Counted from the stretch's first letter, positions 8,537-9,765 are shown. The stretch: 24,691 bases of DNA from Candidatus Cloacimonadota bacterium (GCA_011372345.1 DRTC01000258.1:1-24691); one strand, 5' to 3'. Made by a program: numbers and translations. The notes: a model not told the origin generated them from the letters alone.

Positions 8537-9289
8537 ATGAACTTTCCCGTAGAATATATACAAATCGCAGCTTATCTCGGAGCAGGAATTTGTGTTGGTA
8601 TCGGTGCTATTACAACCGGGATCGGTTCCGGAATAATCGCAGGAGAAGGTTCTCTGGCGATCATGAAACAACCAAAGGCAAATGAAGATATCTTCCGCAC
8701 TATGCTCATCGGTCAGGCTGCCGCTCAAACTGCCGGGATTTTTGCCTTAGTCGTCTCGATGTTACTTATTTATGGCGGATTTGATGTAGCCAAAGGTGGC
8801 TGGTATAAAGCTGCTGCTCTTTTAGCAGCCGGAATTGCGATGGGAATCGGATCGGTCGGACCATCTCTGGGAGCAGGATATTCCGGAGGACAAGCCTGTA
8901 AATCGATCGGTAGAATGCCGAAACACGGAAATGCCATAATGGGAAATATGCTGATCGGACAGGCGCTTTCCCAGACATCAGCGATCTTTGCTCTCGTTGT
9001 TTCTCTACTATTATTATATTCATCTCCAAACCAACCGGAAGGTATTTCGATCGGTAGAATTATGGTTAAAACTATCGCCTTTTTAGGAGCTGGTTCTGCA
9101 ATCGGATTGGGAACAATTGGTCCCGGTGCGGGAATTGGTTATGTTGCCGGTAGAGCAAATGATATGTTGGGAAGATTTCCCGCTGAACGACCGAATGTGA
9201 TGAGAACAATGTTTTTGGGAGCAGCAGTTTCGGAATCGACAGCGATCTATTCATTGGTCGTTGCCTTTTTATTAATATTTGCAGTTTAA
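8537..9289 (+). CDS. atpE: Triplicated (three-hairpin) ATP synthase c subunit; hairpins 1-2 have Gln and hairpin 3 has Glu at the ion-binding position
   Basis: Three c repeats, each with a GxGxGxG-type inner helix, a loop (KQP, RMP, RFP) and an outer helix: GQAAAQT (Q64), GQALSQT (Q146), GAAVSESTAIY (E233). Confidence 0.93.
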   Translation: MNFPVEYIQIAAYLGAGICVGIGAITTGIGSGIIAGEGSLAIMKQPKANEDIFRTMLIGQAAAQTAGIFALVVSMLLIYGGFDVAKGGWYKAAALLAAGIAMGIGSVGPSLGAGYSGGQACKSIGRMPKHGNAIMGNMLIGQALSQTSAIFALVVSLLLLYSSPNQPEGISIGRIMVKTIAFLGAGSAIGLGTIGPGAGIGYVAGRANDMLGRFPAERPNVMRTMFLGAAVSESTAIYSLVVAFLLIFAV

Positions 9290-9315
9290 TATTATACCTT
9301 ACGAACGATTGAGGA

Positions 9316-9473
9316 TAATCTTGAAATTCTTCCAAAATCTCAATCAAGATTACGAGACCTTCGCAATGGTCGGAAATAAAAGTGTAAATTTATTCGACTC
9401 ATAATGAAGACGAGTCGAAATAGACAGTCTCGAAAAATAACCATTCCGAAGGTTTCCAATCATTCGGAAGGTT
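9316..9473. repeat. Cluster of REP-like hairpins between the two atpE genes
   Basis: Stems TAATCTTGA/TCAAGATTA (9316-9352), CGAGAC/GTCTCG (9353-9432) enclosing TTCGACTC/GAGTCGAA (9393-9419), and AACCATTCCGAA/TTCGGAAGGTT (9439-9473). Confidence 0.7.
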
Positions 9474-9513
9474 GATAAATAGATAAAAAAGTATAAGAAT
9501 ATACGGAGGAAAA

Positions 9514-9765
9514 ATGGATTTAACAATTGCTCAAGGAATCGCCAAAGCAGCAGCTCTTCTGGGAGCCGGTATGTGTATGGGAATGGGAGCATTAGGCCCC
9601 GGAGTTGGCGAAGGATTCGTGGCTGGAAAAGCCTGTGAAGGTATTGCTCGTTCACCGGAAAATGCCAGTTTGATCACCAGAACCATGCTGGTTGGTCAGG
9701 CTGTTTCCGAATCGACAGGTATTTACTCGCTGGTTATTGCTCTTTTATTGATTTTCTCGACCTAA
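9514..9765 (+). CDS. atpE: ATP synthase Fo subunit c, Na+-binding two-carboxylate type
   Basis: GPGVGEG (E33) and [11 protein letters not shown] (E66, S67, T68, Y71); strong RBS GGAGG. Confidence 0.97.

Follow-up and report, generated by a model that had tools for sequence, protein, structure and literature searches.

We analysed a 24,691-nucleotide (nt) stretch of DNA from a Candidatus Cloacimonadota bacterium (GCA_011372345.1 DRTC01000258.1:1-24691; hereafter the window) and found that it carries a complete F1Fo-ATP synthase operon on the + strand, in the order atpZ-I-B-E1-E2-F-H-A-G-D-C and ending at position 15757. Two adjacent genes of this operon encode rotor c subunits. The first, atpE1 (8537-9289, + strand), encodes a c1-like protein of 250 residues with three hairpins, and the second, atpE2 (9514-9765, + strand), encodes a single-hairpin c subunit of 83 residues. 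The atpB TAG stop codon (8532-8534) lies 2 nt upstream of the atpE1 start codon. A spacer of 224 nt (9290-9513) separates the two c genes and contains a GGAGG Shine-Dalgarno sequence (9505-9509, + strand) 4 nt 5′ of the atpE2 start.

A preliminary description of this locus had read the 250-residue open reading frame as three tandem c hairpins. This reading was borne out when the product was scanned with Pfam ATP-synt_C (PF00137), which matched it in three stretches with 141 bits against a cut-off of 24. Hairpin 1 spans residues 1-83 (8537-8785), hairpin 2 residues 84-168 (8786-9040) and hairpin 3 residues 169-250 (9041-9286), all on the + strand. The AlphaFold2 model of the triple subunit, built with 66 homologues, had a predicted local distance difference test (pLDDT) score of 96.1 and showed six long helices that form three hairpins with linkers of 5 and 9 residues between them. 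When the hairpins were aligned to the single c subunit (E33/E66/S67/T68/Y71), the ligand residues listed in the preliminary description were reproduced exactly: S31/Q64/T65/A66/F69 in hairpin 1, A113/Q146/T147/S148/F151 in hairpin 2 and I200/E233/S234/T235/Y238 in hairpin 3. The two Gln codons at the carboxylate positions also agreed, with CAA for Q64 at 8726-8728 and CAG for Q146 at 8972-8974 (both + strand), and the sole carboxylate of the triple subunit is E233, encoded by GAA at 9233-9235 (+ strand). In hairpin 1 the partner ligands are gone as well (S31, A62, A66 and F69). The protein thus resembles an F-type subunit c in passing the Pfam cut-off and in the position of its gene between those for subunits a and b, with delta/OSCP present, but it departs from one in its carboxylates, since Q64 and Q146 replace the Glu expected in each hairpin and E233 alone is left. 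None of its hairpins carries the full two-carboxylate Na+ motif.

Hairpin 3 keeps its own outer-helix residues (E233/S234/T235/Y238), but the alignment indicates that the site is incomplete: its inner helix has I200 where a Glu or Gln belongs, and the outer helix before it offers F151 in place of Tyr. Both features are widespread among 111 homologue clusters, from which site patterns were read for hairpins 1, 2 and 3. The I200 position, where the single c subunit has Glu33, is Ile in 106/111 clusters; the outer helix before E233 has Thr147 and Ser148 and carries Phe151, not Tyr, in 111/111. At the Q146 position Gln was found in 109/111 clusters.

The atpE2 product is of the ordinary kind. PF00137 matches it once, and it aligns end to end with the Na+-binding c subunits of Fusobacterium nucleatum (3ZK1) and Ilyobacter tartaricus (1YCE). 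It has the complete two-carboxylate Na+ motif E33/V64/E66/S67/T68/Y71, that is, the inner-helix Glu together with the outer-helix V-x-E-S-T-x-x-Y of the F. nucleatum type, and its motif residues are those of the F. nucleatum subunit (E/V/E/S/T/Y; PMC3692424), whose ring is a homomeric c11, unlike the mixed ring proposed below. Among related loci the ion site of the single c subunit is never lost.

The pairing of the two genes proved to be conserved. The triple protein occurs in 129/232 Cloacimonadota genomes, in all families except three, and its named homologues are all Cloacimonadota. Its gene is immediately followed by a single c gene in 47/49 loci from 15 Cloacimonadota families, so that the survey for three-hairpin AtpE next to single AtpE, suggested in the preliminary description, gave a positive answer. 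The largest of the three families without it, f3, yielded 3 weak matches among 98 genomes. Five f3 genomes were examined (G004, G007, G010, G015 and G044; loci L082-L086), and each has a V/A-type I subunit followed by a 170-residue two-hairpin proteolipid, parts of a V/A-type enzyme, in agreement with PMC12590816. Rotors in which hairpins outnumber sites would thus be in use in both branches of the phylum.

The ratio of non-synonymous to synonymous substitution rates (dN/dS) within the window's family was 0.051, 0.056 and 0.081 in hairpins 1, 2 and 3, respectively, compared with 0.026 for the single c subunit. Being similarly low in all three, these values indicate that the ion-free hairpins are as constrained as the Glu-bearing one. 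Positions conserved at 90% or more comprise the Gly-rich inner helices and the R/K-x-P loops of all three hairpins, as well as Gln146. The Q/Q/E pattern with its correlated ligand losses was found in 37/111 clusters (67-100% identity) and in 28/29 same-family loci, upholding the earlier argument against a sequencing error and also speaking against an open reading frame that arose by chance. Together with dN/dS, conservation across genomes rules out both an error and a pseudogene.

The pattern itself is labile. E/Q/E was the most frequent (47 clusters), followed by the Q/Q/E of the window's clade (37 clusters), E/Q/Q (11), G/Q/E and G/Q/Q (5 each), Q/Q/Q (4) and E/E/E (2); triple subunits thus hold 0 to 3 carboxylates, and 9/111 clusters have zero. 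Loss of Glu64 in hairpin 1 was accompanied by loss of the inner-helix Glu31 and of Val62 in several separate lineages. State changes were counted on a tree built without the carboxylate-site columns, which gave a minimum of 4 for hairpin 1, 2 for hairpin 2 and 8 for hairpin 3 (at least 14 in total). The repeated loss of E233, at least 8 times, suggests that this carboxylate is dispensable. The one-of-three layout claimed before is therefore real at this locus but, far from being fixed, represents one of several states between E/E/E and Q/Q/Q. By the same token, the Q/Q/E pattern holds within the window's family and not across the homologues as a whole, although the decaying paralog that such variation had been taken to imply is ruled out by dN/dS.

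We then compared the triple subunit with known rotors. Its significant sequence matches in the PDB were F-type c subunits only, the best being c1 of Acetobacterium woodii (4BEM chain J; E 5e-29), which was also the best fold match (template-modelling (TM) score 0.82, 38% identity). No PDB chain among the sequence and fold matches spans all three hairpins. The Na+ F1Fo enzyme of A. woodii has an F/V-hybrid rotor in which one c1 is combined with nine c2/c3 subunits (PMC9171764; the chain counts of 4BEM agree). As with atpE1, the c1 gene of A. woodii, and that of Clostridium aceticum, lies directly after atpB and before a gene for a single-hairpin c subunit of the Na+ type (PMC7911925, PMC9171764). 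In c1, too, hairpins are fused and Glu is replaced by Gln; the helix opposite the dead site bears Phe, and the last one turns Tyr towards the next subunit. Whereas c1 has two hairpins (about 18 kDa, four helices), the atpE1 product has three hairpins and six helices, with two consecutive dead positions and a third site that is without the inner-helix ligand and the Tyr. Its relatives hold 0 to 3 carboxylates, unlike c1, and the single c subunit next to it has the E33/E66 motif, whereas that of A. woodii has Q...ET.

Three other systems share some of these features. The triplicated A-type proteolipid of Methanocaldococcus jannaschii has three hairpins and two sites. It resembles the atpE1 product in its three fused hairpins and in having fewer sites than hairpins, and the E/Q/E relatives (47/111) show the same two-of-three pattern. 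However, it belongs to an archaeal A1Ao enzyme whose ring is thought to be homomeric, while atpE1 is F-type by its sequence and its operon (delta/OSCP, subunit b and a PF00119 subunit a), has a single c gene as its partner and retains one site. The V-type proteolipids (NtpK of Enterococcus hirae, 2BL2, and the eukaryotic c, c′ and c″) also have fused hairpins and were the second-best fold matches, but no significant sequence match to a V-type proteolipid in the PDB was obtained. In these proteins one of every two hairpins has a site, to which the preceding hairpin contributes its outer helix, and dead positions alternate regularly; in atpE1 they form a block, and the enzyme type is different. 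Finally, in an engineered ring, the single-chain c10 of Bacillus PS3, less activity was lost through two sites impaired by cE56D if these were neighbours than if they were separated (PMC8809890). An F-type rotor can thus function with c hairpins that are covalently fused, though these constructs are artificial and H+-coupled and their sites are slowed, not abolished. The adjacency effect offers a rationale for fusing dead hairpins.

In solved rings such as those of I. tartaricus and E. hirae, each hairpin relies on the outer helix of the one before it to complete its site, and the Phe and Tyr positions of A. woodii c1 agree with this. The faces that the triple subunit would turn towards its neighbours follow a similar logic. 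The last hairpin keeps Ser-Thr-Tyr in 20/20 triple-family members whose last hairpin is carboxylate-free. Neighbour faces were then counted in 79 representative multi-hairpin c proteins. Tyr(+5) was kept in 65/79 last hairpins, including 39/51 without a carboxylate of their own; it was present in 11/42 internal hairpins that precede a live hairpin and in 1/112 that precede a dead one. A strict rule that Tyr always precedes a live site was rejected, as it fails in 31/42 internal pairs, among them hairpin 2 to 3 of the triple family. The simplest reading of the kept Ser-Thr-Tyr face is that the last hairpin abuts the live site of another subunit. Because hairpin 1 is dead in the window's clade, this neighbour must be a single c subunit, which argues against rings made of triple subunits alone and against a role outside the ring. 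Family members with zero carboxylates would, for their part, be functional only in mixed rings.

A model of a complex of one triple and four single subunits scored 0.53, against 0.00 for the best control, and so passed a mark that was reached by 51/78 solved complexes and 2/108 mismatched pairs. Passes at or below 0.60 are rated weak (5/78 solved complexes passed so low, as did all 4 passing mismatches of 180), and this pass may reflect memory of 4BEM; the model is thus weak support for a mixed ring. In it, the 64/67/68/71 face of a single c subunit lies against hairpin 1, and the 231/234/235/238 face of hairpin 3 lies against the E66 face of the next single subunit.

Translation signals of the two genes were also compared. 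GGAGG precedes the start of the single c gene in 41/48 single-c loci (scripted window). The atpE1 gene starts 2-6 nt after the atpB stop codon (2 nt here), a GGAG within the end of atpB being its only, weak signal, and in most loci it has a weak signal or is coupled to atpB. A strong signal for atpE2 and a weak one for atpE1 fit a ring of few triple and many single subunits, like that of A. woodii.

From these data we infer that the atpE1 product is a c1-like triple subunit that co-assembles with several atpE2 subunits in one heteromeric F-type c-ring, creating an ion-blind arc and lowering the number of Na+ ions per ATP. We consider this the likely explanation, with a substantial margin of doubt. 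A heteromeric F-type rotor with ion-free hairpins and a lowered Na+/ATP ratio had already been proposed in the preliminary description; the gene pairing, the purifying selection, the packing and loop residues, the Ser-Thr-Tyr face and the match to A. woodii c1 all point in this direction. One triple subunit would probably be present per ring, and all three hairpins would occupy ordinary ring positions, because their packing glycines and stalk-contact loops are kept. Hairpins 1 and 2, with Gln for the ion-binding Glu, would carry no ion. The outer helix of hairpin 3 (V231/S234/T235/Y238) would supply what the next single c subunit needs for a full Na+ site, while the preceding single c subunit would turn its Ser-Thr-Tyr face to the dead Q64 position. 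The outcome would be a contiguous ion-blind arc, with Na+ per turn, and hence per ATP, below the number expected from ring size; the fusion would determine how many dead positions there are and keep them adjacent. The rotor may cross the two neighbouring Gln positions by elastic coupling, or ATP hydrolysis in F1 may drive it across. By chain counts, every solved Na+ F-type ring consists of 11 hairpins. If that held here, one triple and eight single subunits would, by way of speculation, give 9 carboxylates and 3.0 instead of 3.7 Na+ per ATP.

Several points weigh against this model. A lower ion/ATP ratio is counterintuitive for ATP synthesis in energy-poor fermenters. The carboxylate state changes so often that ion transport by the triple subunit could simply not matter. 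In addition, the neighbour rule holds in part only, the hairpin before E233 having Phe; since Tyr is missing there, E233 may carry Na+, H+ or no ion.

A wider generalization is possible, although we hold it as a tentative proposal. The c1-like subunits may form a modular site-deletion cassette, limited to one per ring by translational coupling to subunit a, in which fusion makes the dead positions contiguous and so limits the kinetic cost. Lineages would then have adjusted Na+/ATP repeatedly, one site at a time: Cloacimonadota from E/E/E to Q/Q/Q, and Desulfobacterales until a single site is left in five hairpins; in the present case an arc of about 65-100 degrees would be without a canonical site, and the ratio would be about 3.0 Na+/ATP or fewer.

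Among the alternatives, the strongest is that the triple subunit mainly seeds or sizes the c-ring, as an assembly nucleus or template that acts possibly with AtpI and subunit a, either within the ring or transiently, and that site loss is a tolerated side effect. The number of carboxylates drifts freely among relatives, as if ion carriage were unselected, the conserved residues are packing residues, and atpE1 lies within 2 nt of atpB and near atpI. However, a transient factor would need neither the Ser-Thr-Tyr face nor stalk-contact loops in three hairpins, and hairpin 2 has retained Gln itself at its dead position (109/111 clusters). We regard this explanation as unlikely, and if the protein remains in the ring it merges with the heteromeric rotor proposed above.

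Two distinct c genes within one operon could also suggest a gear shift, in which the cell builds, depending on conditions, either a homomeric ring of single c subunits or an all-triple ring with very few sites that resembles a V-type pump. The V/A-type enzyme of family f3, with one site per two hairpins, indicates that low-site rotors are viable in the phylum. Nevertheless, an all-triple ring would be inert in the 9/111 zero-carboxylate relatives and in a four-hairpin form from Hydrogenedentota (see below), and in the window's clade the conserved Ser-Thr-Tyr face of hairpin 3 would meet the dead site of hairpin 1 and be left without a role. Furthermore, atpE1 and atpE2 are co-transcribed, and nothing points to separate control of the two, the promoter and terminator scan being uninformative here. 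Such a switch is therefore improbable.

A membrane protein acting outside the rotor, for example as a separate channel or a stator accessory, is more improbable still, given that the position between atpB and atpE2 is invariant, that c-subunit packing and loop motifs are present in all hairpins and that the nearest relative of known structure is a genuine subunit of a ring. The weakest alternative, a decaying or non-functional atpE paralog or an assembly or sequencing artefact, could appeal to the loss of two of three canonical carboxylates and several further ligands, but it is hardly tenable in view of a dN/dS of about 0.05 in every hairpin, a reading frame intact in 129 genomes of the phylum, the pLDDT 96 model and identical substitutions in independent assemblies.

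We next considered multi-hairpin c subunits more broadly. A search of 1.8 billion representatives returned 1245 relatives, among which hairpin numbers of 2, 3, 4, 5 and above were represented. Metagenome-assembled genomes (MAGs) of Desulfobacterales and other Thermodesulfobacteriota (L059-L066) encode a five-hairpin c subunit of 402-408 residues with the pattern E/Q/Q/Q/Q and Ser-Thr-Tyr in the last hairpin, followed in each case by a single c subunit with the full two-carboxylate motif. Four-hairpin forms adjoining a single c gene were found in Thermodesulfobacteriota, in one Pseudomonadota MAG and in Hydrogenedentota. In the Hydrogenedentota MAG (L075:2848-3879) the four hairpins read G/Q/Q/Q, with zero carboxylates, while the last keeps Ser-Thr-Tyr, and a full-motif single c subunit follows. 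A related-locus search with the four-hairpin protein P0127 gave no match. In a tree of individual hairpins, sequences grouped by position across phyla with weak support (Shimodaira-Hasegawa-like approximate likelihood ratio test (SH-aLRT) 80-93, 72 columns), and a single origin of all multi-hairpin c forms is suggested by this grouping. Two further kinds of protein were seen. One is a separate four-hairpin family of about 319 residues (L081:2216-3907; E/Q/E/D, 49 representatives), encoded directly after atpB with no further atp genes near, and the other comprises c polymers of 8 to 15 near-identical hairpins (P0192, P0207, P0259 and P0237; 631-1139 residues) with a carboxylate in each.

By its sequence, the triple subunit is a three-hairpin relative within the known F/V-hybrid kind of rotor, and its architecture is part of a wider family of 2- to 5-hairpin proteins, with members in sulfate reducers and further phyla. 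We found no description of a three-hairpin F-type c subunit in searchable full texts, a scope that leaves out the review by Brandt and Muller (2015) and Matthies 2014, so that a prior description is possible; neither a 2026 evolution preprint nor a ring-stoichiometry preprint mentions one. The usual view is that the number of identical c subunits in a ring determines the ion-to-ATP ratio; among F-type enzymes, the only exception to have been characterised is, to our knowledge, the hybrid ring of A. woodii. If the proposed rotor exists, bacteria would also tune this ratio by deleting sites at constant ring size, and these subunits would be natural test cases for how a rotor steps past two or three consecutive ion-free positions. 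A lower ratio would allow an ATP-driven pump to reach a higher sodium-motive force and would yield more ATP per ion, but it would also raise the threshold for synthesis. Energy-yield estimates for Cloacimonadota fermenters may accordingly use the wrong stoichiometry.

The Cloacimonadota that carry the triple subunit are anaerobes of marine and engineered systems, and the sequencing runs containing the stretch analysed here were metagenomes from marine sediments and hydrothermal vents. The host genome is 96% complete. Its only c-subunit genes are atpE1 and atpE2, and no second rotary ATPase was found in it. A single RnfD/NqrB-type gene and a single membrane pyrophosphatase are present, and a search of the same genome for the oxaloacetate-decarboxylase beta subunit found none. 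Published reconstructions of Cloacimonadota metabolism give a chain of Rnf and a Na+ F-type ATP synthase, or simply a "complete F-type" enzyme, and leave the c subunits unmentioned (PMC8542988, PMC12590816).

The remaining genes of the operon, all on the + strand, are as follows. It begins with a gene for an atpZ-like small membrane protein (ATPase_gene1; 6986-7222; PF09527, E 4e-12), followed by atpI for the assembly factor (7244-7621; PF03899, E 7e-8) and atpB for Fo subunit a (7623-8534; PF00119, E 7e-43). Subunit a retains the stator Arg in an FRLFGN motif, as seen in an alignment to chloroplast subunit a (6FKF). Downstream of the two c genes lie atpF for subunit b (10059-10541; PF00430) and atpH for delta/OSCP (10538-11077; PF00213), the presence of which identifies the enzyme as F-type. 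The genes for F1 subunits alpha (atpA, 11337-12836; PF00006 match at 11781-12428), gamma (atpG, 13091-13945; PF00231, E 3e-99), beta (atpD, 13966-15366; PF00006 match at 14356-14997) and epsilon (atpC, 15359-15757; PF02823 and PF00401) complete the operon. A terminator-like hairpin is located after atpC (15756-15776). The promoter scan gave 36 promoter-like sites where 27.5 were expected, which is near chance level and carries no information on operon regulation. Upstream of the operon (3283-7017) we found rsmG (gidB), parA, parB, an M23 peptidase gene and a bactofilin gene, indicating a housekeeping chromosomal region with a neighbourhood of the origin-proximal type.

Two spacers within the operon are unusual. 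At 224 nt, the one between atpE1 and atpE2 is longer than its counterparts in most relatives (21-50 nt) and in the sister species (53 nt). The additional length comes from a small, strongly structured repeat (z -4.7), and at least 5 other contigs of the same genome carry copies with 78-84% identity. This repeat looks like an insertion within the operon resembling a miniature inverted-repeat transposable element (MITE) or a repetitive extragenic palindromic (REP) element. The spacer between atpE2 and atpF (293 nt, 9766-10058) contains a motif of about 40 nt (query positions 84-129) that is likewise repeated on several contigs of the genome.

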